Of a DNA stretch of 64,000 nt, positions 22,774 to 36,334 are shown in pieces. How positions within the stretch are numbered: position 1 is the stretch's first letter; each line of letters begins with the position of its first letter. Source of the DNA: an uncultured Acidobacteriota bacterium (lineage in GTDB: Bacteria > Acidobacteriota > Terriglobia > UBA7540); the NCBI GenBank assembly GCA_963804995.1, contig CAWDSK010000005.1:1216001-1280000 (forward strand). The letters are read 5' to 3'. The notes below the pieces were generated by a model. That model made no database searches. It was not told the origin of the DNA and saw nothing but the letters and a program-made list of their open reading frames with translations. The position numbers were made by a program, and so were the translations under genes.

Positions 22774-24609
22774 ATGGTAAGGAAGGAAGACTGCCTACGA
22801 GCTGTTAAGGCCTTCCGGGCAAAGCAGGGCATCGAGGCGAGTGACGACAATGTAATCGCCTCGATTCACCTCATGAATGCCCATGGTCTCGACATTGCCG
22901 CCGCTCTGGACCAGAGCTCGAGAGCTGGTGACGACCATGGAATCGACGCTTGGCATTACGATGATGCGAATCAGGAGCTCTTCATCTACCAAAGCAAGTT
23001 AAGCGAGAGCAAAAGCTTGGTGCTGCGAGGTTTGGACGACCTCGACAGAGCCCGACAGTGGCTTGAGCCTGTTGTCATCGATGGGGCGGTGGAAAAGGTC
23101 CCCAGCGATAACCACTGCCTATTCACCCTTTACACCCACTTGGCCGGCGTTCGGGCGAATCTGAGGCGGATTCGCTTCGCCCTTTTATCCCTTTTCGACA
23201 GGAACGAGCTTGAGGACACTGACGACTACGGCGAGTTCGAAAAAGCAATCATCGGCTCTAGGTTAAACGAGCATGTGAGAAGCAACCTGAGGGGGAAACT
23301 CGTCATTGACGCCATGCAATACAACCTTGAGCAAGGCGTTCCAGCCAAGGTAAAGGTTTATCCGATCTCTGTCATCCCAAATGCACGCTTATGCCTTAGA
23401 AGGACCGCTCACCTGGATTTGGCGTATATCAGTCTCTACGATCTCGTCCAGCTATACCGGCAAAGGGGGGACGTTTTGTTTGACAAAAACGTGAGGCTTT
23501 CCTTGATCGGCAGTAAGGAGGCTCGCCAGCGTCTAGTCCACCCTATGGAGGAAACCCTCGACCTCATCACCTCCGGGAAGCTCAATCCGAACATTTTCCC
23601 TTTTTATCATGTAGGTGTAACGATTGCCGCACCGGCTTCCGCACCCGAAGATTCGGACGTGCTCGGGTTAGAAGCGCCGAGCATCATCAACGGTTGTCAA
23701 ACGCTGGCAATCGCCAACGAATACTTGAAGCGGCTAGAGAGAGCCCAAAGCGATGGCGAGAGGATGCGACTTTTCAGAGACATAAAGGTCATTGCTAAAG
23801 TGGTTGTCGGAACATCTAATGAAGAGCTCAAGGAAATCACCAACTCGAATAACAGACAGAACCCGATCGAGAACTGGCAGCTTTTCTCAAATGAACCCCT
23901 ACATATCGAGATCGAGGCAGCCCTGAAGGAGATAGGGGTTTTCTACGAGCGCCAAAGAGGGAAGTTCGACGCAGTCATGAAGATCGCGGACAACGCCCAA
24001 CACTACTACGCGACGAACGGCACTTTCATTAAGGTCGTCGATCTTGGCCAAGTCGTTGCATTGTCCAGGGAGAATCTCCAATGGGCAGCGAAGCCCTCTG
24101 AGATTTTCCTCAATAAAGACAACCACGACAAAATATTTGAACGCTCAATCCCGAAGTATGGCCGTGACATTATTTTCGTTTCAAACCTCTTCAAGGCAAT
24201 GAAGAGGGCGCTTGATAATTACTTAAGCATGCCTGCTTACGCCGCCGACGGGGCCGCGCAGAACATCTTCAAGAAACAGATCGTCCGAATGCATGTCTTC
24301 GCTCTCGCCCTGCTACATTTCTATCAGAGCGATAGGCGTCGGGCTGTCCGGACGGACTTCTCCCACCGGCTGAATAAGATCGCGAGCCCCAACCTGACCA
24401 CGGAGATAGAGACCTTCTACCGACAGGTCATAGCCAAGGTCAAGAATTGGTACTTGACCGAATCCAATGGTCTCACACAAGAGGTATCCAATAGAAAGCT
24501 AGATGTTTTTTTCCAGCATTTGGCCGTTGAACTTGGTGTAGACGCCATCGAGGGCGCGAGACCGTTCTCTTCAACAAGTATAAAGTGGGCCGAGCACCAA
24601 GAGGCATAG
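22774..24609 (+). CDS. AIPR family protein (abortive infection phage resistance)
   Basis: N-terminal DHGIDA...IYQSK nuclease-like motif; NVRL, IINGCQT and NSNNRQN AIPR motifs; RBS GGAGG. Confidence 0.85.
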   Translation: MVRKEDCLRAVKAFRAKQGIEASDDNVIASIHLMNAHGLDIAAALDQSSRAGDDHGIDAWHYDDANQELFIYQSKLSESKSLVLRGLDDLDRARQWLEPVVIDGAVEKVPSDNHCLFTLYTHLAGVRANLRRIRFALLSLFDRNELEDTDDYGEFEKAIIGSRLNEHVRSNLRGKLVIDAMQYNLEQGVPAKVKVYPISVIPNARLCLRRTAHLDLAYISLYDLVQLYRQRGDVLFDKNVRLSLIGSKEARQRLVHPMEETLDLITSGKLNPNIFPFYHVGVTIAAPASAPEDSDVLGLEAPSIINGCQTLAIANEYLKRLERAQSDGERMRLFRDIKVIAKVVVGTSNEELKEITNSNNRQNPIENWQLFSNEPLHIEIEAALKEIGVFYERQRGKFDAVMKIADNAQHYYATNGTFIKVVDLGQVVALSRENLQWAAKPSEIFLNKDNHDKIFERSIPKYGRDIIFVSNLFKAMKRALDNYLSMPAYAADGAAQNIFKKQIVRMHVFALALLHFYQSDRRRAVRTDFSHRLNKIASPNLTTEIETFYRQVIAKVKNWYLTESNGLTQEVSNRKLDVFFQHLAVELGVDAIEGARPFSSTSIKWAEHQEA

Positions 24610-24659
24610 CAGAAGCCCCTCTGTGCAATGCGCGTGTTGTCATGCCTCATTGCGCGGCG

Positions 24660-25305
24660 GGGCCATAAGGTTGCCGAAGCCGCCTTGCGGAAGAGTATCT
24701 TGATTGGGAAAAAAACGGTCGTAGGAATCTAGCGCAATGTCGGGACGGCGTTCCATAGTTTCCGTCAGAATGTGCGCCCCCATCTTGCGCGCCAAGTTAG
24801 CAGGAACGGCTTCGTTGAAGAAGAACCAAATAGGCCCGCCTTTCCCTGACCGCGAACGCTCCAAGGCTACCGGCAAGTTCATCTGGCGGCAAGTTTCCAA
24901 GAACGTAGCGGCATCGTCTTGCCACGCCGCTTTGTCGAAATCGGCCGCCAGGAAGAAACAGGTTTCATCCAGAAGCATTGGATAGAGGCCCATAACGAAA
25001 TCACGGCCCTGGTTGTCTTGACCTCTCAGGTGCCACCGAATCGCATCGTCAGTTACGGGAAGAAAACGCTGGTGGGGGCATTCGGAACATTTGATTCTGG
25101 GCTTTTCGCAGATTCCCTGAACCCATTCATTGCCACACACCGGCGAATAGCCGGCCCTGCCCGTCTTGCGGCTTTCGAAACGGCGCGGGTAAACATCTTC
25201 GCGCCCACGAAACAGGGAACGGAAGAGGGCGATCTTGGCCTCGGCGGGGGAACGTTGATTCACGCCAATGTGCGCCAAGTCAGGAAGCCGGACAGGTGTA
25301 TCCAC
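24660..25305 (-). pseudogene. TOTE-type archaeo-eukaryotic primase N-terminal fragment
   Basis: KIALFRSLFRGREDVY, GYSPVCGNEW, FLAADFD, ERSRSG, FPNQD..P.GGFGNL, then truncated. Confidence 0.8.
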
Positions 25306-25606
25306 AACCCTATTCTACATTCGCATCTCCCGTGGGGTTCAAGCACAATCGGATGCCCAGCGGAGCCACTGGCCGAAGTGGGGGTTGGTGTGTGCGGAGT
25401 CCATCACGGAGGATTTGCCCCGACAGCTAATCTGAGATGTCGTGCTCCTATTGGATACTGGCTACTCCATGCGGTGAATTGAGTGGTAAAGCGTCCGGGT
25501 TCCAACCCGAAGGCCGACCCGATGCTGAACGAATTCACAAGCACTTAACGGAGTTAGCAGCCCCCGTGAGCACCTGTAAGTTATGGAAACATCAATGGAC
25601 TGCGGA

Positions 25607-25644
25607 TTGACACGGTAGAGGTCTGCGGTTCAAGATCGCTCGCC
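25607..25644 (+). other. Degenerate 3' half of tRNA-Val(GAC); probable att-site remnant
   Basis: TTGACAC anticodon loop, GGTAG, AGGTC variable loop, TGCGG-TTCAAG T-arm; no 5' half. Confidence 0.6.
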
Positions 25645-25738
25645 TAGCATCTGCCAGCGAATGCGGCCCATGGATGCTTGAGAAGCTGAATTGCGGCGAA
25701 GGCGAGGCGCACGCGTGCGTGAGAACAGACATACGACT

Positions 25739-26538
25739 TCACCAAGAATTCAGTTCGTGCTTCCGATCCAATACGGACGCAGGCTTTTCCGAGACAAACG
25801 GGTCGATCCGGTCGGCCTGCTTTGTCGCCCACTCGATCCATGCCTTATAATGCGGCTGCTTCTCGGCAGACAAGGAACGGGTTTTCTCGGCATAAGCTGA
25901 AATGAATCGACGCAGCCGTTCCGCACGCTCCCACAGATCGACCCACTTGTTGAATTGCTCCAGCTTCTTCTCCTCTTCTTCGATGTCTTTCCGGAGATGC
26001 GCCCTCTCCTGCGCACGTTTTTGCTGTTCGGCCTCGCGCTTTTTGCGCTCCTCCTCTTGGCGCCGTTGCGCGACAGCGGTTCGCATCAGTCCGGCCACGA
26101 AATCCGCGACGTGGTTCTCGATCCGCTTGACTTTTGCGTCACTCCATCTTGCCCGTTGTTCGTAATGTACCCATGTCTCCGAGTGAATGACCAGCGCGAG
26201 CTTTCCCCCGGGTTCATGTGTCACGATTTCGTCGTAATCCCATCGATCGGTCGGATTGGGCACTCGCGGCTTCTGTGTAACGACTCTCCGGATTGGCTCC
26301 TCGATCCCGAAGGACACGTGCTCACCATCGATCAAGGCCGTTGTGCGGCCTTGCTCCGAGATTTCAACACTGGCGCCCTGCCGTTCCAGCACAGCCAAGA
26401 CCTGGGCCATTAGGAGCAAGGCACGTTCCAGCGTTCCCTCGCTCACCTTCACGTCAAGACCACTTGCCTCTCGCGGCAGGAGGATGCCGTGTTCATCCTT
26501 GCGGCTGCGACTTCGCAAGAGGCTTGCGGTGTGCCGAA
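25739..26538 (-). pseudogene. Hypothetical protein with C-terminal coiled coil, N-terminally truncated
   Basis: Long ORF ending WIEWA.KQADRIDP; its frame begins at the AbiEii break point with no RBS. Confidence 0.55.
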
Positions 26539-26922
26539 TCAGCGGATTGGGAATCGCAAGCCGTGTGCGGGCGCTCCCGTCGCTGCTTCTGTTGGTTCAC
26601 TGACTTGGAACTCAAACCAGTCGTCAAAGACAAGGGAAGCCACCCCTCGGAGATGGGCGGTAGTCTCTTCACGGGTCCAGCGGTTGGTTGCCGAAACGTC
26701 GATATCTTTGGTCGTTCGGGCCCGAGTGCCGAGCCGCAGTTGGAGAGCAAATCCGCCCTTGACGATCCATGCTTCAGGCTCCTTCTTTGCCAGCCGAGCC
26801 AAGAAGCGGTCGAACGCGACTATCTTCCGCAGGCGCGTCAATGGCTGTCCGCCTTCGAGGCTCTGTTGCCGAAACCGTTCTTCCAAGGCACGACGGAATG
26901 CCGCTGATGTTTTGTATTTCAC
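26539..26922 (-). pseudogene. abiEii: AbiEii nucleotidyltransferase toxin, truncated
   Basis: FDRFLARL, WIVKGGFAL...RTTKDID; only 127 aa. Confidence 0.82.
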
Positions 26923-27524
26923 GAATGATCTTTTGTCGATTTCGAATAAGACTTGATTAGACGGGCGGCCCGGCCTCCCCGATGCCTCACTTCAGCCGCG
27001 AGCGCTTGGCTCGTGGTGAGTCCGCGTTCGAGCGCTTCCCGTATGGCGCGGGCAACATGATCTTCAGAAAGCCCTGCCTTGGCCACATCGGCTATAGTGC
27101 GTGGGACTGAAGTAACCTGCAGCCCTTCGCGCTTCACGAGATTAGCAGGCGACAGGCGATTCGTGTGCAGGCGAAATCCCTTTCGTCTGCGCGAGGCGGT
27201 ACGTGGAACGGTGACATGAACTTCCCCAGGGAGGACGTCAGACAGGTCGTACAGGGCAAGGGCGCTTTCGTGCGAGATGGCAGACTTCGGGCCACACTTC
27301 AGCCAAGCCACAAATAGATCCTCGAATTGGGAAGAAGGAAATTGGGCCAGGCGATATACTCCATGCGCGACCCTTTGGAAGCGTCCATTTTTCGAATAAT
27401 CGCTCAGACGCTCCCCCGAGAAGCCCACCCTGGCCGCCTGACGAGCGGTGAAGTATCCTGCCTGCTGCTCCGCGAGATGATAGAGAGCATCGTGATCGGG
27501 CGTTTTCTTGGCCACGGTTGTCAT
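26919..27524 (-). CDS. abiEi: AbiEi type IV TA antitoxin / transcriptional regulator
   Basis: AEQQAGYFTARQA, RVAHGVYRL, ISHESAL, VTSVPRTIAD; 4-nt overlap with abiEii. Confidence 0.88.
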   Translation of the reverse strand: MTTVAKKTPDHDALYHLAEQQAGYFTARQAARVGFSGERLSDYSKNGRFQRVAHGVYRLAQFPSSQFEDLFVAWLKCGPKSAISHESALALYDLSDVLPGEVHVTVPRTASRRRKGFRLHTNRLSPANLVKREGLQVTSVPRTIADVAKAGLSEDHVARAIREALERGLTTSQALAAEVRHRGGRAARLIKSYSKSTKDHS

Positions 27525-27593
27525 TGTGTGCAAAACCTTCGGAAATACCTAAGTTTCTGCACACATTATGCCCGAATAAAGCATGCTCGTCCA
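27525..27593 (-). promoter_or_regulatory. abiE promoter with inverted-repeat operator
   Basis: TGGACG-N17-CATAAT on the minus strand; TGTGTGCA (27525-27532) / TGCACACA (27558-27565) inverted repeat between the -10 and the ATG. Confidence 0.65.
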
Positions 27594-27695: not shown

Positions 27696-28178
27696 CCCGT
27701 AGTATCCAAATACTGGATCCTTTTGAAAGCGCAGATGGATAGTGAATCCGCTGACAGCGGGTGCGGGGGTGTCATGACACTTTGCCGCCGTGTTACGCTG
27801 ACACGATGCGCCCGACGTTGGATTCCTTTCGACTGCTGCTGATTTCCCTCGCGGGCTGGCTGAACCCCCAGCAGCAAGACGTCATCGACTACCTCCAGGA
27901 AGAGAACCGAGTTCTTCGGGAACAACTCGGCGATCGATGGCTGCGCCTGAACGACGACCAGCGCCGGCGTTTGGCAGTCAAGGCCAAGAAACTGGGCCGC
28001 AGGGTGCTGCACGAACTGGCCACCCTCGTTACGCCGGAGACGCTCTTGGCTTGGTGCCGCAAGCTCATCGCCCGGAAATACGATGGCAGCCAGCAGCGTG
28101 GCCCTGGTCGTCCGCGCACCCCAAACGAGATCCAACAGTTGGTGGTCCGCATGGCCACCGAGAACCGCGCTGGGGGCT
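27696..28178 (+). mobile_element. Truncated second copy of the rve IS
   Basis: Near-identical to 18318-18800, breaking at GCGCTGGGGGCT. Confidence 0.9.
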
Positions 28179-28994
28179 TATGTCGCGACACCCATCGAGG
28201 TCGCAGGAGCTTATACGATTTTCGCCGATCGCGGTGAGTACGTCGCACCCCGGTGCATTGTGGCCGTCGCCGACGCCCACGGCCGCACCGTTTGGAACAA
28301 TCCTGTCAGCGCCCGCCGGGTGCTTGATTCGCGCGTCAGTTATTTGATGGTGAGTTTGCTCGAAAGCGTCATCAACAACGGCACTGGGGCAGGCGTGAGG
28401 GCCCGTGGCTTCAACCTTCCTGCCGCAGGGAAGACCGGCACTTCACATGACGGCTGGTTTGCCGGATTCACCTCGAACCTCCTCGCCGTGGTTTGGGTTG
28501 GCTACGACGACGACCGCGACCTGAAAATGACCGGCGCGCAGTCCGCTCTGCCCGTCTGGGCCGAATTCATGAAGCGGACGACTGAATTATCCCTTTACAA
28601 GACCTCACAACCCTTCAATAAGCCTGAAGGGATAGAGATGGCCGAGATTGACAATCTCACCAACCTTGTAGCGCTCGCCGATCCAATCTTGACGCACAGC
28701 GAGGTGTTCATTGCGGGTACGGAGCCGTTCCCACCCGTTCAGCAAGAACCAGCGGACATAGCTCTGGGGCCGCTGGGCTACCCCTCGACTACACTGGCGA
28801 GGAAGGAATCACCGCAGCGGGCGGACGGGATTGTCCTGATTTCCGACGCGCAGGGGCATAAGGTTTACGTCAATGGCGGAGACCTGCTCTCCCCCCGGCC
28901 CGAGCATCGGCTCGCGCCCGCTTGCCCCCACCCCGCCCTCGGTGGCTTGATAGGAATCGCAGGTGCGACCGACGCTCAAGCTTGTCCAAATTAG
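28167..28994 (+). pseudogene. Class A penicillin-binding protein transpeptidase C-terminal fragment
   Basis: [35 protein letters not shown]...VWVGYDD. Confidence 0.85.
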
Positions 28995-29174: not shown

Positions 29175-30596
29175 TCATCGTGCTCTTAAGAGCGCGCTCG
29201 AATCCGGCCGAGTACCAGTGACTTCAATGCCGTAGGTATCGCCAAGCGCGATTAGTTCCGGAAACTGACATTCGGGGTGGCAGGGTTTGAACTCTGGAGG
29301 TTCCATGTGGCTCCCGACGAAGTGGTAGAGTTGCGCCCCTGGGTTGGACAGATTCAATGGGGCCAGGGTCAGCGCAAGCATTTGAAGCATCTGCATGCTG
29401 GCGCAGGACATCGAAAAAGCAAAAACGTTCTCTCGGACTTTTAAGGGATGGTCGTTAAGCAAGCCTTCAATGTAAGTGGGGTCGTCGAGGAACCCCTCGC
29501 GTTCGGCTTGAACTAGCCCGGGATCGTACTGCCGGTGGCATTGCAAGCAACGGCGTCCGATTGTCGCTGTGTGCGCTTTCCAGTCGGCTGCGACCAGCTT
29601 CCCGAAACGATTGGTTCTGACGCCGATTCCGCCGTCAATGACCGGTATCAGGTGAGCGTAGGCGATGAGGTTCAAGACGTAGCGGCCCCATGGTCGATCC
29701 ACACACGAAAAGATAACATCACTATCGAGCGCAGCGCGAAAGCCATCTTCCTCATAGACGGCGGCTGCAACGGGATCAGGGCGGAAGCGCTTCGTCGTTG
29801 CCCGCGCCGATAGATGCTCGGTCTCAACGTCGACCTTGAGGCGGCCAATGTCCTTTCGGGTGGCATAAACCAGCCGGTCCAGGTTATGCCGTTTGACATG
29901 GTCGAAGTCAATCAAGATTATGTTTTCGAAGCCGGTGCGAGCTAACGCCTCAGCGACCATACCGCCGACACTTCCGGCACCCACGATCGCGATTCGGAGC
30001 CGGACAAGATCAGTGTGTGCCTGCTCACCCCATGCAGATACGGTTCGGACCTGCTCCTCACTGGATTCTGGGGGCCTTGCCAACCTATCCATGTAGGTAA
30101 CCATAAGGCGCTCGCCGACTATACGCACAGTGGCGCAGTGCCGCCGCAGGTAGGTCCGAGGGGCGCTCCGCTCCCAGAACCTGGCGCTCCAGGCGCCATC
30201 GCCGGCCAAGGTTAAACCTACAAGCGGAAGCCGCGTGGCGCCGAAGACCGCAGGGGCGAGACTCTGCTCGGTTGTGATGTCATCGAAGCTCATCCCCTGC
30301 CACTTGATTCCGTTGGGATGGCTGTGCATGAGTGCAAGCCCACCAGCTTCAGACGTGGCCTCAGCTAGTGCCCGCTGAAAGAAGACCGTCTCAAGACTGG
30401 CATTGCCGTGAATGTTGCGATCTCCGTTGCCTGGAAGAATGAGACGTTTGACCAGCGCGGTTTTCCGCTCCCGTCCCCTGCTCGGGCACCATATGGCGAA
30501 GCAGAGGTCTTCCTGACCGTCCCAGCGTAGGAGGTGGTCGCGAGCGACTTGATTGATCGCCGTTGTCATTGCGGAACTGTGTGCGGCACGGCTCAT
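29175..30596 (-). CDS. JAB-peptidase + ThiF/E1 fusion (BubCD-like)
   Basis: N-terminal QE...HSHP...S..D JAB motif; GAGSVG, DFD.VKRHNLDR, SCVD, CLQC and C-terminal CHPEC; ATGA-coupled to the upstream gene. Confidence 0.88.
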   Translation of the reverse strand: MSRAAHSSAMTTAINQVARDHLLRWDGQEDLCFAIWCPSRGRERKTALVKRLILPGNGDRNIHGNASLETVFFQRALAEATSEAGGLALMHSHPNGIKWQGMSFDDITTEQSLAPAVFGATRLPLVGLTLAGDGAWSARFWERSAPRTYLRRHCATVRIVGERLMVTYMDRLARPPESSEEQVRTVSAWGEQAHTDLVRLRIAIVGAGSVGGMVAEALARTGFENIILIDFDHVKRHNLDRLVYATRKDIGRLKVDVETEHLSARATTKRFRPDPVAAAVYEEDGFRAALDSDVIFSCVDRPWGRYVLNLIAYAHLIPVIDGGIGVRTNRFGKLVAADWKAHTATIGRRCLQCHRQYDPGLVQAEREGFLDDPTYIEGLLNDHPLKVRENVFAFSMSCASMQMLQMLALTLAPLNLSNPGAQLYHFVGSHMEPPEFKPCHPECQFPELIALGDTYGIEVTGTRPDSSALLRAR

Positions 30597-31414
30597 TGGG
30601 TTTCCCATAAGGAATAGATGTGGCTCATATAGGCAACCGTCGTCTTCTTGCTGGTTGCCCAGTCTGGGTATGGGCGCGACCAGTACTCCCAATCTCCGCC
30701 CGTACCCTGCTGGAAGGCTCCTGACTGCGATTCGTGGACGCCTCCTAGCGGATGGCCAACGTCGGCGGCGGGGTGAGCAGGATAGATACGTGGGGAGACG
30801 TGGGGACCGGTCGGTGTAGTCATGGGAAAATCGGACGGCACGACGAAGCCTAGTCGCACCGAGCGGCCGCTGAAGCGACCGCTCGGAACGGGGTAATCAA
30901 GAACGACGTGGTTGGGTTTACCCTGCAGAAGCTTCGGGTTATATCCCATTGCGCGTAGCCCGTCCAAAAAGACCTCGACGCCAGTGAGGATCGGACCGTA
31001 AGAAACGGGTTTCGGCCCCGTGGAGACGATCTGAAAGTTCATGCAGTTGTGCATTTTGATTGGCACGCCGCCTTTACCCTGGTAACTCTCGGTATGGCCG
31101 GCAATGATCTGAACGAGATAGTGGTCTGCAGGGTCTTTCTTGCCGAACTCCACAATGATTTGGTTCGGGGTAAGCTCGTGTTTTGTTGTCTCGCAGGGCT
31201 CACCGTCAACTTCGAAATGAATTTCCTGGTGGTGGTGCTCCTCTGCTTCGTGAATCTCTTGCGCTGCCGCCTCAATTTCACGTGCGGCGATTTTTTCAGC
31301 TCCTTGCGCGGCTGTCAGATCTGCTTCCGCCTGCTGTAAGTGCGCCTCTGCCATCTGGAGCTCAGTGCGTGTATCCCGGCCCTCATTCCTGCTAACATCT
31401 TGATTTTCTGGCAT
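30593..31414 (-). CDS. Coiled coil + ubiquitin-like (multiubiquitin) + E2/UBC-like fusion
   Basis: Ala/Glu heptads; IHFEVDGE...LTPNQI...YLVQ...F..VSTGPKPVS beta-grasp; then VPSDFP..P.GPH...WEYWSRP E2-like domain with no Cys; RBS AAGGAG. Confidence 0.78.
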   Translation of the reverse strand: MPENQDVSRNEGRDTRTELQMAEAHLQQAEADLTAAQGAEKIAAREIEAAAQEIHEAEEHHHQEIHFEVDGEPCETTKHELTPNQIIVEFGKKDPADHYLVQIIAGHTESYQGKGGVPIKMHNCMNFQIVSTGPKPVSYGPILTGVEVFLDGLRAMGYNPKLLQGKPNHVVLDYPVPSGRFSGRSVRLGFVVPSDFPMTTPTGPHVSPRIYPAHPAADVGHPLGGVHESQSGAFQQGTGGDWEYWSRPYPDWATSKKTTVAYMSHIYSLWETQ

Positions 31415-31479
31415 GTTATTCTCCTTTTTCGTACCGGTGGTAGACCCGCCTTCAATACTCAATCGGTTTGGCCGGAGTT

Positions 31480-31501
31480 TTTCGGCCACCGGTGGCCGAA
31501 A
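31480..31501. promoter_or_regulatory. Perfect 22-bp palindrome in the divergent promoter region
   Basis: TTTCGGCCACCGGTGGCCGAAA. Confidence 0.7.
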
Positions 31502-31556
31502 TTTCTTGGGTCGACCGACTAACTATTAGGGGTGTGACTTTCGGTTACTGAAAAGA

Positions 31557-32159
31557 ATGGCGGCAGGCACTTCACCTCGGAACCCGGAGACGATCGATTG
31601 GCGGCTGCTGATGAAGCGACTGCATGGAGCTGCCGTTCGCCTCGTCGGCAGCAGCAACCGTTTGATCGATTGCGGGGGATCCTCCGCGAAGGACCTCGTT
31701 TCCGAGGTGCTTGAAGAGTTCTTTAACTCTCCGAATGGATGCGGCTGGGATGGCACCGAGGCTGGGTTGACCCGATTGCTGTGCAAAATGATTGAATACA
31801 GGTTTATCGACCACGTACGCCGTGACGGCAAGGTCGCGATCGACTCCGAAACCCCACTTGCGACCGCGATATGTCATGATTTAGGGCCCGACGAGCAAGC
31901 AGCCAGCGATCAACTGCGCAGTAGAATGTTCGATGCTGTGAAAGGTCACCCGAAGGAAGCCGAGTTACGGGACTTCATCCAAGCCGCGGCGATGATTAGC
32001 GATGGAAGTATGGTTGATAAACAGATGGCAGAGTTGCTCGAAATTAGGGTGGGCGAAGTGCGTAATCGTAGAAAGATGCTCCGGCGAATCGCCAGTATTC
32101 AACAGCTCGGAATTATTATGTTAGGCGGACCACATGAAGACAAAGAAGGGCAAGCATGA
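31557..32159 (+). CDS. ECF-like RNA polymerase sigma-70 factor
   Basis: Region 2-like SAKDLVSEV...WD...L..LLCKM..YRFIDHVRR; region 4-like MAELLEIRVGEVRNRRKMLRR. Confidence 0.7.
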   Translation: MAAGTSPRNPETIDWRLLMKRLHGAAVRLVGSSNRLIDCGGSSAKDLVSEVLEEFFNSPNGCGWDGTEAGLTRLLCKMIEYRFIDHVRRDGKVAIDSETPLATAICHDLGPDEQAASDQLRSRMFDAVKGHPKEAELRDFIQAAAMISDGSMVDKQMAELLEIRVGEVRNRRKMLRRIASIQQLGIIMLGGPHEDKEGQA

Positions 32160-32574
32160 GGCACTCGACCGCCAGTTGAAAGCGCTGTTCGGCGATCCGT
32201 TGTCGGTCGATACCTCGGAACTCGACAATATCAGCGAGGAAACCGGCGACGGTTCCGATCTCGTTCAGATCGCGTACGACCTTGCCGCTCGCGCGGCCCA
32301 ACAATCTCGCTTGGAAGGTAAACCCGTGCCGCCGCATGTTCAGACGGCTCTGGCTCAGATTAAGGAAGCCAACACGTTGGAAGGCGCGACTTCAGCCGAG
32401 CTTGCTGAGATCGTGGACTGGGTTCTGAAGCCGTTTCGCGGCCCGACTGAGAAGCTCGCGTTCAATCATCATCGGTTGACTGATAAGTCGGAGAAGGATG
32501 AGCGGCTGTTGCAGCAGTTGGGTGAGGAGGTGAAACAGGACTGGACAAAGGAGGATGAAAGTGAACGCGGTTGA
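32134..32574 (+). CDS. Small soluble protein, candidate anti-sigma / IrrE substrate
   Basis: 146-aa helical ORF overlapping both the sigma and peptidase genes; function inferred from position only. Confidence 0.6.
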   Translation: MKTKKGKHEALDRQLKALFGDPLSVDTSELDNISEETGDGSDLVQIAYDLAARAAQQSRLEGKPVPPHVQTALAQIKEANTLEGATSAELAEIVDWVLKPFRGPTEKLAFNHHRLTDKSEKDERLLQQLGEEVKQDWTKEDESERG

Positions 32575-33415
32575 AGAGCTCGCAGAGTTACTCGCAGAAC
32601 GGTTGGCACCAAACGGAGTACCCGATTTACCTTTCATCGCAGGTCAAATCGGCCTTCGGATTAGGGAAGTTGAAGCGGATGGCTTCGATGGTACGCTGGT
32701 GCGAGCGCAGGACGCTGCGAAAGGAATCATCGCGGTCAACTCCGCGATCCGTGAGTACACTCGCAAGCGATTTACCATCGGGCACGAAATCGGTCACTAT
32801 CTGATTCCGCATCACCGGGGGCTGCAGAACGTCTGCCGGTCCGACGACATCGAGCGATGGCATTCCGCCATTGCTACAACTGAGCGAGAAGCTAACCAGT
32901 TCTCGGCAGAGTTGCTCCTCCCTCGTAGGGTGGTCAGTCCTCGCCTCGGCTTAGATAATCCGTCGCTTCGGAGGATTAGCGAAGTTGCTCGCGAATTTTC
33001 AACCAGCCTATCTGCCACGATTTATCGGTATCTGGACCTTACTGAGCTGGCGTGCTGCATGGTTTGGAGCGAAAGCGGTCGAGCGAAGTGGTACGTACAT
33101 AGTGACAGCTTTTCGCTTCCCTTGCCCATCCAAGAACTGCCTTCGGCGGGATCTTGGGCCGCGAAACTATTTGCGGACCAACCAGTGCCCAATGATCTGG
33201 TAGAGGTTCCTTCCGACGCTTGGTTAAATCGGTGGGACACGAGCAGAGTCAGCCGGGTTCTCGAGCACTCCATTCCTCTTCCGTCGTACGGTGCCGTTAT
33301 ATCATTTCTGGAATTGGAGTTAGAGGCTTCGGAAAACCGCGAAGAAGAGGATGAAGCGCTCTTGCAGGAGTTGGACCCAAACAGATTCGACAGTCGCTCG
33401 CGGCGCAATCGCTGA
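32561..33415 (+). CDS. ImmA/IrrE (CapP-like) zinc metallopeptidase
   Basis: GFDGTL, RKRFTIGHEIGH (HExxH), EREANQFSAELLLP, F.TSLSA and a C-terminal GAF-like region. RBS AAGGAGG favours GTG 32561. Confidence 0.92.
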   Translation: MNAVEELAELLAERLAPNGVPDLPFIAGQIGLRIREVEADGFDGTLVRAQDAAKGIIAVNSAIREYTRKRFTIGHEIGHYLIPHHRGLQNVCRSDDIERWHSAIATTEREANQFSAELLLPRRVVSPRLGLDNPSLRRISEVAREFSTSLSATIYRYLDLTELACCMVWSESGRAKWYVHSDSFSLPLPIQELPSAGSWAAKLFADQPVPNDLVEVPSDAWLNRWDTSRVSRVLEHSIPLPSYGAVISFLELELEASENREEEDEALLQELDPNRFDSRSRRNR

Positions 33416-33560: not shown

Positions 33561-34649
33561 TTATACTCTACAAATGCTGGAATGCGTGAAGGCCCCGTGC
33601 AAAACACTCGCTACCGCAGCAGCTTTTGCCCATGCACTCTGATTTCTATCAAGCCTGAGGTCACAATATGATTGGGGTGGCCTCAAATCCGCTTGAAGTC
33701 CCAGCAGATACGAAATCTGTGAAATGGAAACAGGCTCTTTGTAAGGGAAAACGTTATCCAGTTCGATTGCGTTAACTTCTGCAGACTGACCTACGTAGGC
33801 CGAAAACTCGTCGCGAGTACATCCTAGACCTGCATGGAATCTCGTCCATATGGCCTCTGGAGTACCCTTGGTGATTGAGCACACGGTGGCTTCACCAACG
33901 AGCGCCTTTTGAGGGGTGGAGGAGTACAGCACCACCTTACAGCCAATCCATTTTTCCGAAAACTTCTTTCGGATTTCAACCATTTTGGAGCCGGAAAGGA
34001 TACGCTCCGCATACTGAGGTTTCATACTAACCAATAAGTCGCCTCCGAGAGAGTACCCACTCACATTGAATTTCCTCGCCAGCGCCGGCAGACGTTCTAA
34101 AGCGGCAAGGCGCACAAGCTTATGAGGCGCCGAACATATCAACTCGTCTTCCCCAGTGCGATATTGTCTCTCCGACTTGGCTGGCTGCATGAATCCGAAA
34201 GATTGGAAAAAGCTCGCTCTTGTCTCCCACAGGCTTTCTGGAAGAGTGAAGTGAATCTCCTTCGCGATATGCCTTGTCTCCAGAGTCATTTGGGTGAAGA
34301 AGAGCTGTCCGAGGTCCATATCTTGAAAATCGCGCTTGATTCGTAGATGGCAAAACTTTGCCTCTTTGCCTATCTTCAGAATCGCAGTCGCGATCGGCTC
34401 TTCGCCTTCGTATGCCACCCAGGCGGCTCGCTCAGAGGTTATTAGACCCGGAACAACCTTCTCTCGCAGCCACCGGTGAATGCCCGGATACATATCTTCG
34501 CTGGCGCCGACAAGGTTCATGAGTGTTTTTAGCTGGTCCGAATTAAGCCGAGCATCCGCCTTTCCCAGCTTCACGATCCTGAAATTTGCCGCCAGTGGAA
34601 ATAACGAATCGGATCGCTCATTTAATCGCTGCTTCAATATTGCCATCAT
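33561..34649 (-). CDS. GNAT acetyltransferase + ASCH (PUA-like) domain fusion
   Basis: YPGI.RWL..KV, IATAILK, KFCHLRI...FQDMDLG (GNAT); SMKPQYAERILSGSKMVEIRK...LYSSTP (ASCH GxKxxExR). Confidence 0.8.
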   Translation of the reverse strand: MMAILKQRLNERSDSLFPLAANFRIVKLGKADARLNSDQLKTLMNLVGASEDMYPGIHRWLREKVVPGLITSERAAWVAYEGEEPIATAILKIGKEAKFCHLRIKRDFQDMDLGQLFFTQMTLETRHIAKEIHFTLPESLWETRASFFQSFGFMQPAKSERQYRTGEDELICSAPHKLVRLAALERLPALARKFNVSGYSLGGDLLVSMKPQYAERILSGSKMVEIRKKFSEKWIGCKVVLYSSTPQKALVGEATVCSITKGTPEAIWTRFHAGLGCTRDEFSAYVGQSAEVNAIELDNVFPYKEPVSISQISYLLGLQADLRPPQSYCDLRLDRNQSAWAKAAAVASVLHGAFTHSSICRV

Positions 34650-34662
34650 TACCTCTCAGACG

Positions 34663-35841
34663 TTAAGTCCAATTTGCAAAGAAGTTCGAAAGCTTGAGAT
34701 CCTGGCTTCCGTAACCCTTTGCTTCTTCCTTTTGCTCTTCTTCGTTCAGTGTTGGTGCATCCTCTGACATCCGATAAAATATGAGATTAGCCATTTTCTC
34801 GCCGTTTGCAAGGCTAACCGGAACCTGATGGCCACGCACCTCAAATATCAGAGGAGTTCCCTTCTTTCCGTCCTCTCGGTAAAGACCGAAGTGGGGATGC
34901 ACGAAACCCGCATAGTGAATCCGCATCTCTCCCATTGTTTCATCGCTGGCGCGGCAATAGATCGCGATGCCTTTCGGCACGTGTAGCTTCTCCCTTGATC
35001 TCAATATGTAGAAAATGTCAGGCTCAATAACCAAGCGACTGTTTTTATCTACATGCTCAATGTCCCAATACGCGCTGGGGTCGGTCTTCTCATCCTGCTT
35101 CCAGAGTGGAACCGGACCGCGTATATCATTTGGAGCATCTACTCGCCTCGAACGAAATGCAACTCCCCGAATCGCGACTCCTTCAGAATCACCTATCGTA
35201 GCATTAGCCAGATTTACGGTCAGGCTTTCATTTCTGTGGCCGGTATCACGAAAAATAGTGTTAAACAATTCCGTTCCTCGAACGATTAGGTCATCGGGTT
35301 TGCCGTAGAAAAACCGAAGCTGACTAAGCGAGGTATTTGTCTTGACCCTTACATCAAACGTTATCGGGGTGATTTCGAGAAACATGTCCCCGGAGCCTTT
35401 TGATACGCGTGTGTCAAAGCATTCGTACGTCTCCATCCCGTCCACTATAAGGCGGGCAAGAACGTCCACGCGCCCGACTGAACTCTTGGCAGTCGCTTGT
35501 CCGTAAATCACCTGTGAGTTGCGCAACCCAGCTTCCAGTCTCTCCTGAAGCCTGAATACATATGTCTTTTGCCGTTTTAGGTCATAAATACCATCAGTGG
35601 GTTTGCGCATTTTCTGTGCAAGCTTATATTTCTCCGTAATGAACCAGCCGTATGGGCTCTGTGACGGTTTCACAGACCCTTCTAACATCTCGTACGCATC
35701 ATCGGCTAGCGAAAGGTCCATAGAGGAGTGGCCAATCTTGGGCCTCGATCCGGCGTGAGTGATGAACCCCTCGTCCACTAGTTTTCCCATTTGGGGTTTA
35801 TTTAATGCTCCCGGTGCCCATTCGTCCCACGGATATCCCAT
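34663..35841 (-). CDS. dcd: 2'-deoxycytidine 5'-triphosphate deaminase (two-domain DCD, dUTPase fold)
   Basis: SSMDLSL, AKSSVGRVDVLARL, LSQLRF, GEMRIHYAGFVHPHFG, FEVRGH, YGSQDLKLS; RBS AAGGAGG. Confidence 0.85.
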   Translation of the reverse strand: MGYPWDEWAPGALNKPQMGKLVDEGFITHAGSRPKIGHSSMDLSLADDAYEMLEGSVKPSQSPYGWFITEKYKLAQKMRKPTDGIYDLKRQKTYVFRLQERLEAGLRNSQVIYGQATAKSSVGRVDVLARLIVDGMETYECFDTRVSKGSGDMFLEITPITFDVRVKTNTSLSQLRFFYGKPDDLIVRGTELFNTIFRDTGHRNESLTVNLANATIGDSEGVAIRGVAFRSRRVDAPNDIRGPVPLWKQDEKTDPSAYWDIEHVDKNSRLVIEPDIFYILRSREKLHVPKGIAIYCRASDETMGEMRIHYAGFVHPHFGLYREDGKKGTPLIFEVRGHQVPVSLANGEKMANLIFYRMSEDAPTLNEEEQKEEAKGYGSQDLKLSNFFANWT

Positions 35842-36334
35842 TGAATTACGATCCCTCCTTGCAGGACTGTAAATCGCTCGGCTCCATAATGGGGCCGACA
35901 CCGAATTGAGACAAGCATCTTTTCGGCACGCATCGCCTAGACACTCCGCCTGACATAAAAATAAGAATATCTGATTCAGAGGGAAAATGGCGAATACAAA
36001 GCGAAACTAAGAATTCAAACTAAAAGTGCCATGTGTACCCAGGAGCTTGTCCCGGACGAGCTTGGGACGACGATTCTGCGTTGCGTCCAATGCTATCAGC
36101 CCAGCCTCGCGGTGTACGGTTTACCGATTCCCCGTCACTTGGTTGTATAGTCGCCAAACCGCTCCTCTGTTGTAGGCACCCGCTTAGAAACGTAGAAATC
36201 TGAACGCAGGCCGAGGATTGAGAGCGAGTCATCCTCATCGCCGCAGGCGGCTTTGGCTTTAAATATCATCGCCGCAGGCGCGTTCGGAGACGGCGGGATT
36301 TGGTAGGATGAGTTCCTGGAGATGTAAGAAGGAG

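Follow-up and report, generated by a model that had tools for sequence, protein, structure and literature searches.

A predicted anti-sigma factor with a CapH-like tail between genes for a sigma factor and a CapP-type peptidase in an uncultured Acidobacteriota bacterium

Described systems and the place of the triad

The damage-sensing controllers described for bacterial defence operons are CapW, CapH+CapP as well as CapK+CapS and, in the part of the source available to us, all of them act by release of a repressor (PMC13228613). Our analysis concerns a cassette of three overlapping genes, hereafter the triad, in a 64,000-nt stretch of DNA from an uncultured Acidobacteriota bacterium (GCA_963804995.1, contig CAWDSK010000005.1; this whole stretch is called the window, and coordinates without a locus name are window positions). 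By sequence and modelled structure, the triad encodes a sigma factor of the extracytoplasmic function (ECF) type (open reading frame 1, ORF1), a predicted anti-sigma factor with a CapH-like C-terminal tail (ORF2) and a CapP-type peptidase (ORF3), and it lies head-to-head with an operon for ubiquitin-like (Ubl) conjugation. The triad is a real, conserved regulatory cassette; its input is like that of CapH+CapP and its output like that of CalpT-CalpS, and it is a member of neither.

Similar to CapH+CapP, the triad has a CapP-type M78 peptidase with a cysteine switch and the residues of the single-stranded DNA (ssDNA) groove, and its predicted substrate gene lies directly upstream. The family also shares the F|R site (H|H in this copy) with the helix that comes after it, and the head-to-head placement with Bub (bacterial ubiquitination-like) operons or with operons of cyclic-oligonucleotide-based antiphage signalling systems (CBASS). 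In contrast to CapH, ORF2 has no helix-turn-helix (HTH) domain, is about 40 aa longer and has an N-terminal half that is predicted to bind the co-encoded ECF sigma factor; the shared region of the triad carries two putative sigma-type promoters, and the output would be activation. In the IrrE/DdrO and ImmA/ImmR pairs, an M78 peptidase likewise cuts the C-terminal dimerisation region of a regulator after DNA damage. However, their substrates are Xre-HTH repressors, and IrrE lacks the cysteine switch according to the available part of PMC13228613.

[quoted passage not shown] Their proteases, however, are of the Lon-SAVED or TPR-CHAT kind, answer cyclic tetra-adenylate (cA4) or target RNA, and act downstream of recognition by clustered regularly interspaced short palindromic repeats (CRISPR) systems, whereas the protease of the triad is of the M78 ssDNA-sensor type, no link to CRISPR was seen and control is likely directed at the neighbouring operon and at the triad itself. 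DdvS/DdvA of Myxococcus xanthus is similar in that an ECF sigma factor and its anti-sigma factor positively control a CBASS/CRISPR island, with the anti-sigma factor binding both sigma2 and sigma4. DdvA differs in that it sits in the membrane, carries a zinc-binding domain and a TPR-CHAT sensor on the periplasmic side, and is released by RseP (both points from the available part of PMC11506125), whereas ORF2 is a soluble protein devoid of Cys. A first-pass annotation of this DNA, made from the sequence alone, had considered positive control of a defence system by such logic to be undescribed. This claim falls, since CalpL-CalpT-CalpS and Csx29/Csx30/CASP-sigma (10.1101/2024.05.08.593097) and DdvS/DdvA (PMC11506125) precede it in the accessible parts of these sources.

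The operon facing the triad resembles Type I Bub (10.1101/2024.11.21.623953) in its Ubl-E2 and JAB-E1 fusions, its crossover-loop Tyr and its head-to-head placement with a damage-sensing regulator. It differs in that bubE was not found here and the E2 has Ser-Arg-Pro in place of the Ser-x-His of BubB; the regulators given in the available part of that preprint are CapW and CapH+CapP, with no sigma factor among them. Compared with known anti-sigma classes (ASD/ZAS, NepR, CalpT), ORF2 has no Pfam or PDB sequence match and a low-confidence model (predicted template modelling score, pTM, 0.29), and is probably a new anti-sigma fold.

A related arrangement has been noted before. In one sentence of the available text, Lau et al. 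state that capH and capP adjoin a predicted sigma70-family factor in 24 of 408 CBASS systems (10.1101/2022.04.27.489752); the middle gene is named capH there, and the term 'sigma factor' occurs once in that part of the paper. Because three of the triad loci found here are CBASS, the 'capH' genes of these 24 systems are likely ORF2-like. Our search of the full-text literature, whose coverage mostly excludes subscription journals, retrieved no study of a CapP-cleaved anti-sigma factor. Term searches of the supplements of PMC11601596, PMC13373217 (part of its files) and PMC7826278 also gave none, two Bub tables held no sigma entry, and the supplement of the ECF re-classification had no M78, IrrE, ImmA or DUF955 entry. 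On balance, we favour the view that the triad represents one more class among the DNA-damage controllers of bacterial immunity, and the first activating one, in which a CapH tail is carried on a new soluble anti-sigma fold and CapP licenses a private sigma factor. In such a class the sigma factor and its twin promoters would drift jointly to specificities distinct from one another across cassettes; it would be a cassette swapped among Bub, Bil (bacterial ISG15-like), CBASS and nuclease operons, and would be the commoner CapP wiring in our phylum sample (10/13); many published sigma-adjacent 'CapH+CapP' systems may belong to it.

Triad proteins, twin promoter-like elements and family

The genes of the triad and of the divergent operon are as follows.

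31557..32159, plus strand: ORF1, divergent ECF-type sigma factor with sigma2 and sigma4 only (200 aa)
32134..32574, plus strand: ORF2, all-helical, predicted anti-sigma half and CapH-like C-terminal tail (146 aa, no Cys)
32555..33415, plus strand: ORF3, M78 zinc peptidase of the CapP/IrrE family, carrying a cysteine switch (286 aa)
30593..31414, minus strand: Ubl-E2 fusion (BubAB-like) that opens the putative target operon (Atlas 0.95 to Multi_ubiq/Prok-E2_E; Pfam Prok-E2_E E 0.017)
29175..30596, minus strand: JAB-E1 fusion (BubCD-like; ThiF 6e-29, JAB motif by alignment)

ORF1 and ORF2 overlap by 26 bp and ORF2 and ORF3 by 20 bp, while a gap of 142 bp (31415-31556) separates ORF1 from the start of the Ubl-E2 gene at 31414. 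The start codon of ORF3 is probably the GTG at 32561, judged from an AGGAGG that ends six bases 5' of it. The span of the triad, the overlaps and the gap agree with the first-pass annotation, and the two motifs it named lie at ORF3 residues 77-81 (HEIGH) and ORF2 108-114 (LAFNHHR). The annotation had also seen no Xre-HTH repressor nearby, and none was found: 0/573 window ORFs of at least 40 aa matched a two-protein CapH profile at E 1, and 0/53 other ORFs of 45-200 aa between 27500 and 36400 matched any Pfam family at E 0.01.

ORF1 has 99 relatives among 1.84 billion representatives. Fifty-five near-full-length relatives were aligned with it, and 38 of the 56 rows matched Sigma70_r2. The resulting profile retrieved mycobacterial SigH/SigE and SigL chains, the best being a SigH/SigE chimera in which sigma2 and sigma4 were both covered (E 5e-6). 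In the structural model (predicted local distance difference test, pLDDT, 83), ranks 1-13 among the Foldseek matches listed were ECF sigma factors, with a best E of 3.5e-3 and none at E 0.001. The sigma2 DL..E motif is conserved in the family; in sigma70, the helix of this motif (ORF1 49-57 here) binds core polymerase. A missing sigma2/sigma4 fold had been named beforehand as a finding that would overturn the annotation, and the fold is present by NCBIfam, homologue, profile and Foldseek matches. Taken together, these analyses identify ORF1, by sequence and model, as an ECF-type sigma factor of about 200 aa with sigma2 and sigma4 only. No match to ORF1 was found among plasmid sequences. A sigma-profile search of 401 genomes of the host phylum returned mainly ordinary ECFs, with one triad (L003) among the 6 top loci inspected, and a locus scan of genome contigs with a narrow sigma alignment returned 1 locus.

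ORF3 matches Peptidase_M78 (2e-14, Pfam) and PADLOC capP (1.3e-52, positions 3-241 of 242), and its best PDB match is CapP 7t5t (1.8e-12), ahead of IrrE structures at 4e-7 and 6e-6. Its zinc and catalytic residues are H77, E78 and H81 (HExxH), with E110 as the third Glu ligand. The cysteine switch is represented by C94 with D97 and D98, equivalent to C114, D117 and D118 of E. coli CapP, and the ssDNA groove by R70, K178, W179 and Y245, equivalent to R90, K195, W196 and Y264. This matching was made by spacing, from the available part of PMC13228613, and by alignment to 7t5t rather than to the E. coli sequence; no equivalent of E. coli W280 was identified in this way. Among 62 homologues, R70 is kept in 60 and C94, W179 and Y245 in 61 each, and the switch-loop acids are poorly kept (D at position 97 in 7/62, at position 98 in 13/62). 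No SAVED or Lon match was seen (Pfam, PADLOC). ORF3 is thus, on sequence grounds, a CapP with zinc, cysteine-switch and ssDNA-binding residues.

ORF2 is of a different kind. None of 67 family members matches Xre/HTH_3 in Pfam, the family has no PDB sequence match, and the model of ORF2 alone is all-helical and poorly packed, with a best structural Z of 5.9 to unrelated helical hairpins; Atlas gave 0.85-0.86 to unnamed clusters. The most conserved part is the tail, with F/Y-R, then an invariant Asp (D122 in 70/70 aligned members), then an amphipathic helix. Column 112 holds F in 37, Y in 20 and H in 7 of the 70 members, and column 113 holds R in 55 and H in 15. Ten of the 70 weakly match PADLOC capH (best 9e-4), and every one of these alignments stops at the C-terminus of the profile (positions 99-102); the true CapH proteins of L170 and L179 match it at 1e-20 and 1e-23. 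CapH itself is cleaved at F82|R83 (10.1101/2022.04.27.489752, available part), and CapP has been modelled gripping the CapH helix that comes after the cut (PMC13228613, available part). The first-pass annotation had placed a candidate cut near LAFNHHR, and by alignment H112|H113 inside this motif does correspond to the CapH-like F/Y-R position of the family.

32461..32475, plus strand: candidate CapP cut site, codons F110-N-H-H-R114, with H112|H113 at the family F/Y|R bond (alignment of 70 members)

In natural ORF2-CapP fusions (L034 8519-9787; protein P0202) the F/Y-R motif is not evident.

A complex of ORF1 8-190 with ORF2 4-140 was predicted with a separate alignment for each chain and three controls, a kind of prediction that the annotation had proposed. 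The pair scored 0.65 vs 0.01 for the best of the 3 controls; in calibration, the mark was reached by 116/157 solved complexes and 2/215 mismatched pairs. The runs had at least 87% of contacts in common, with a partner pLDDT of at least 58. ORF2 is thereby predicted to bind both sigma domains through residues 7-79, which lie confidently against sigma2 (10-29, 45-66, 76-84), the linker and sigma4 (140-157, 172-179); the lowest-error contacts are on ORF1 49-57, the DL..E helix. In the model, ORF2 residues 80-140 outside the named interface are uncertain in position, which should not be read as free.

A promoter matrix trained only on the sigma-facing strand had the form GGCAAAAA-13 nt-TCGnAT. In the gap region 31415-31556, sigma-type elements point both ways.

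31494..31520, plus strand: rightward bipartite element toward the triad, -35-like GGCCGAAA, 13 nt, -10-like CCGACT (leave-one-out p 0.020)
31461..31487, minus strand: leftward mirror element toward the Ubl operon, GGCCGAAA, 13 nt, CCGATT (other-strand matrix, p 0.025)

The two elements are identical at 13/14 block bases and 4/14 spacer bases, and the rightward one has 16 nt from the first hexamer to the CG. The pattern common to both occurs twice in the 7.55 Mb host genome (92% complete), both times in this gap, and no sigma70-consensus site was found in the 142 bp. With the left-one-out matrix, the rightward element was found in 31/44 triad regions and, on the strand not used for training, the same motif in 23/44; back-to-back twins were seen in 19/44 vs 0/53 control regions. 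When sites on the held-out strand were picked by the -35 block alone, the CG stood at the expected place in 19/44 regions vs 1-7 at shifts of 1-4 nt. The two bases after the CG vary across loci and agree within a locus in 32/36 cases vs 14.7 expected (18 loci, three near-duplicates dropped). A motif-free twin test was devised after mirror elements of other sequence had been seen by eye in 8 more distant genome loci, and was not blind; it found twins in 7/8 of these loci, 21/44 triad regions and 5/52 controls. These sequence signatures mark the gap elements as putative autoregulated ECF-type promoters. Upstream of the sigma gene in five distant triads (L182, L184, L186, L189, L190), the mirror geometry is kept and the sequences are very different, with a TGTCCG-type first block. 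The sequences suggest that sigma and promoter specificity drift together. Looser promoter patterns were not enriched genome-wide (4 vs 1-9, and 23 vs 26-37, at shifted spacers), which gives no sign of a wider regulon.

At 31480-31501 the pair of -35-like blocks makes up a perfect palindrome of 22 bp, which a scan had labelled terminator-like. This label was rejected as its main meaning, as the palindrome arises from blocks 6 bp apart, and at other loci their separation reaches 31 bp and the sequence between them is unrelated.

Metagenomes were scanned with the peptidase alone as seed. Of 494 confirmed relatives the best 80 were kept, and 28 of these with less than 1000 bp upstream were set aside, leaving 52 loci, one pair near-identical. 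A sigma-profile match lay two genes upstream of the peptidase in 46/52; among the other six, two had a weaker sigma and partner, one was cut short, one was an ordinary CapH+CapP and two were interrupted by integrase or toxin-antitoxin genes. Since these loci were selected by the peptidase alone, the arrangement is no coincidence. In the 401 phylum genomes, 14 full-length matches were obtained with the capP model; with one unpublished genome left out and two of the ten triads judged by eye, CapP was wired to a sigma factor and partner in 10/13, to an HTH gene in 2/13 and to neither in 1/13. Viral loci with distant M78 peptidases had either partner in 0/67 (broader profiles). Source labels of homologues were Terriglobia, Bryobacteraceae and Planctomycetota. 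A quick CapP tree of 60 rows, in which two of the HTH-linked rows had long branches, did not discriminate between one origin and several for the sigma-linked CapPs.

The annotation had also called for a survey of neighbouring effectors. After removal of one duplicate, we surveyed the divergent genes of 43 metagenome triads that had 500 bp or more of upstream sequence, and found Bub, Bil-like, CBASS, nuclease, DUF3892 and TIR genes. Ubl-conjugation operons (Bub I, Bub II, Bil-like, E2-E1+JAB) accounted for 16, CBASS cyclase operons for 3 and a TRIP13 ATPase for 1, giving 20/43 of Ubl-conjugation or CBASS type; a further 7 were small nucleases, DUF3892 or TIR genes. Close relatives in the CapP tree face different cargo (L109 and L110 Bub II, L113 DUF3892; L111, L116, L117 and L119 all unlike), so the cassette is portable.

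A proposed switch and its alternatives

We consider it probable that ssDNA opens CapP, that the ORF2 tail is cut and the remnant removed, and that the sigma factor then fires both promoters, inducing the operon and the triad. At rest, the N-terminal helices of ORF2 would wrap sigma2 and sigma4 and hold ORF1 inactive. When damage or infection yields ssDNA and this opens the cysteine switch, CapP would dock on the CapH-like C-terminal helix of ORF2 and cut the F/Y|R bond, which is H112|H113 in this copy. Once the remaining fragment is removed, free sigma with core RNA polymerase would act at the two back-to-back promoters, one driving the Ubl-E2/JAB-E1 operon and the other the triad, a positive feedback that new ORF2 would damp. 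The computed support comprises the folds and families, the conserved gene order, the mirror elements and the predicted sigma:ORF2 contact. We infer the activation by ssDNA, the cleavage, the second step described below, the reading of the elements by the sigma factor and the defensive nature of the operon.

The earlier proposal that a soluble anti-sigma factor frees a dedicated sigma upon cleavage is supported in its first part by the predicted sigma binding. Release in one step is doubtful because a cut at 112 leaves the sigma-binding half (7-79), upstream of it, whole in the 1-112 fragment. A second step would therefore be needed, probably degradation that starts at the new C-terminus, or else a loss of the dimerisation that the tail mediates; predicted family cuts would expose C-terminal ends such as YAF, PAF and AYF. 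Such a step has a parallel in CalpT, whose cleavage leaves the sigma factor bound until a new C-degron triggers degradation, according to the available part of 10.1101/2024.05.08.593097.

Several observations weigh against this mechanism or its scope. ORF1 matches NCBIfam sigma70-ECF at E 6e-6, under the family cut-off, and by itself has no Pfam match. The likeness of the pair to the many solved ECF/anti-sigma complexes may in part inflate the complex score, and the predicted cut lies about 30 residues past the confident interface. ORF2 here has His-His at the expected cut, vs F/Y in 57/70 and R in 55/70 family members. The fixed matrix finds twins in only 19/44 regions and in 0/8 of the more distant genome loci, and the motif-free test misses 23/44. 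No family was assigned for 16/43 divergent regions, and the fused triad of L034 (sigma plus ORF2-CapP fusion) faces a secreted FN3 protein and no defence gene. For Bub operons themselves, phage blocking has not been demonstrated in the available part of 10.1101/2024.11.21.623953. Finally, the loci are kin, and our counts overstate their independence.

The elements could instead serve a split repressor, in which ORF1 is a sigma-derived DNA-binding subunit and ORF2 provides a dimerisation tail on inverted elements, and the CapP cut would then be derepression. ORF2 does retain the CapH dimerisation/cleavage tail, the -35-like blocks do form a perfect palindrome here, and loss of the tail would leave the ORF1 interface untouched. 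However, among 19 loci the two blocks stand anywhere between 6 and 31 bp apart, whereas -35 and -10 keep a constant spacing, a pattern that favours two promoters over one operator; the gap has no sigma70-consensus promoter to repress, and a sigma2 with its DL..E motif is conserved. We therefore regard the split repressor as unlikely. We give the same low weight to a switch that is built as proposed and has another trigger or substrate, with CapP answering zinc or redox (through C94) or acting on ORF2 without the F/Y|R cut. The rarity of acidic switch-loop residues in the clade, the link between IrrE activity and free zinc (PMC13228613, available part) and the two ORF2-CapP fusions without a clear F/Y-R are in keeping with it; the strong conservation of R70, W179, Y245 and C94, and of the tail motif as the best-kept part of ORF2, argues against it.

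The family might also work as proposed while this copy is detuned or dead, with His-His cut poorly and a bubE-less operon decaying among insertion sequence (IS) fragments. H112|H113, the lack of bubE and the IS, transpeptidase and TOTE fragments that flank the locus would fit this account. Nevertheless, none of the five genes is broken, the two promoter-like elements are likewise intact and agree with one another, and Y/H at P1 with H/R at P1' is found throughout the close clade, which suggests co-adaptation with its own CapP; such decay seems improbable to us. Least probable is that ORF2 is a chaperone or co-activator needed by the sigma factor, with CapP cleavage turning the operon off: although the predicted interface is silent on the sign of regulation, its lowest-error contacts fall on the DL..E helix, and the described CapP/IrrE systems are all damage-induced.

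The divergent operon, its surroundings and significance

The JAB-E1 protein has the HSH..S..D motif and the crossover-loop Tyr in alignment with the BubCD of two Type I Bub loci (L124, L144). In the Ubl-E2 fusion, a predicted coiled-coil and a His-rich stretch precede the Ubl, and the E2 has Ser-Arg-Pro, not Ser-x-His; the fusion is 41% and 36% identical to separate Ubl- and E2-sized genes of L121. In that locus, whose operon is otherwise the same, Ubl and E2 are encoded separately, and DUF6527 gave no match. Here, no ORF after JAB-E1 matched bubE (DUF6527), and tblastn with four DUF6527 proteins found none in the host genome at E 0.01. This suggests that L121 and the present locus form a bubE-less Bub subtype.

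On the other side, a dCTP deaminase and a GNAT-ASCH fusion (PADLOC PDC-M11B 7e-27) converge on the triad (33561-35901, minus strand), possibly a defence pair that depletes or modifies nucleotides. The stretch 22774-27533 encodes an AIPR protein (AbiU-like, 4e-20), a TOTE primase that is truncated, and an AbiEi antitoxin accompanied by a short piece of the AbiEii toxin. Directly after the Ubl operon (28083-28994, plus strand), a lone C-terminal transpeptidase fragment (penicillin-binding) is joined to an IS-like fragment and may mark an insertion boundary. By its gene content, the locus is part of a defence island disrupted by IS elements.

Elsewhere, L033 (G370:C20, 1469-9571) combines a triad with a Type II Bub operon; the element that bears them also has an AbiE pair and genes that, judged by eye, resemble VirB6 and VirB4. 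The genome of L033 holds a second, distant triad, L182. L034 is surrounded by polysaccharide and Tad pilus genes. Genes without a family label occupy the controlled-operon position in L174 (4533-5513), L181 (421-1425), L165 (1-419), L177 (6087-6662), L164 (458-1260), L129 (1708-1983) and L178 (6206-6664), and these are candidates for new defence or stress genes.

In conclusion, if the proposed switch is true, the sensor that elsewhere releases a repressor would here serve to release an activator with positive feedback, and toxic operons would stay silent by default even after loss of the regulator genes. It also offers a testable reading for the 24 CBASS systems of Lau et al. with an unexplained sigma factor beside them, and the triad would serve as a marker by which new defence operons can be found. 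Bub operons would gain a natural route of induction, and the family would constitute a set of orthogonal damage-inducible sigma/promoter pairs.

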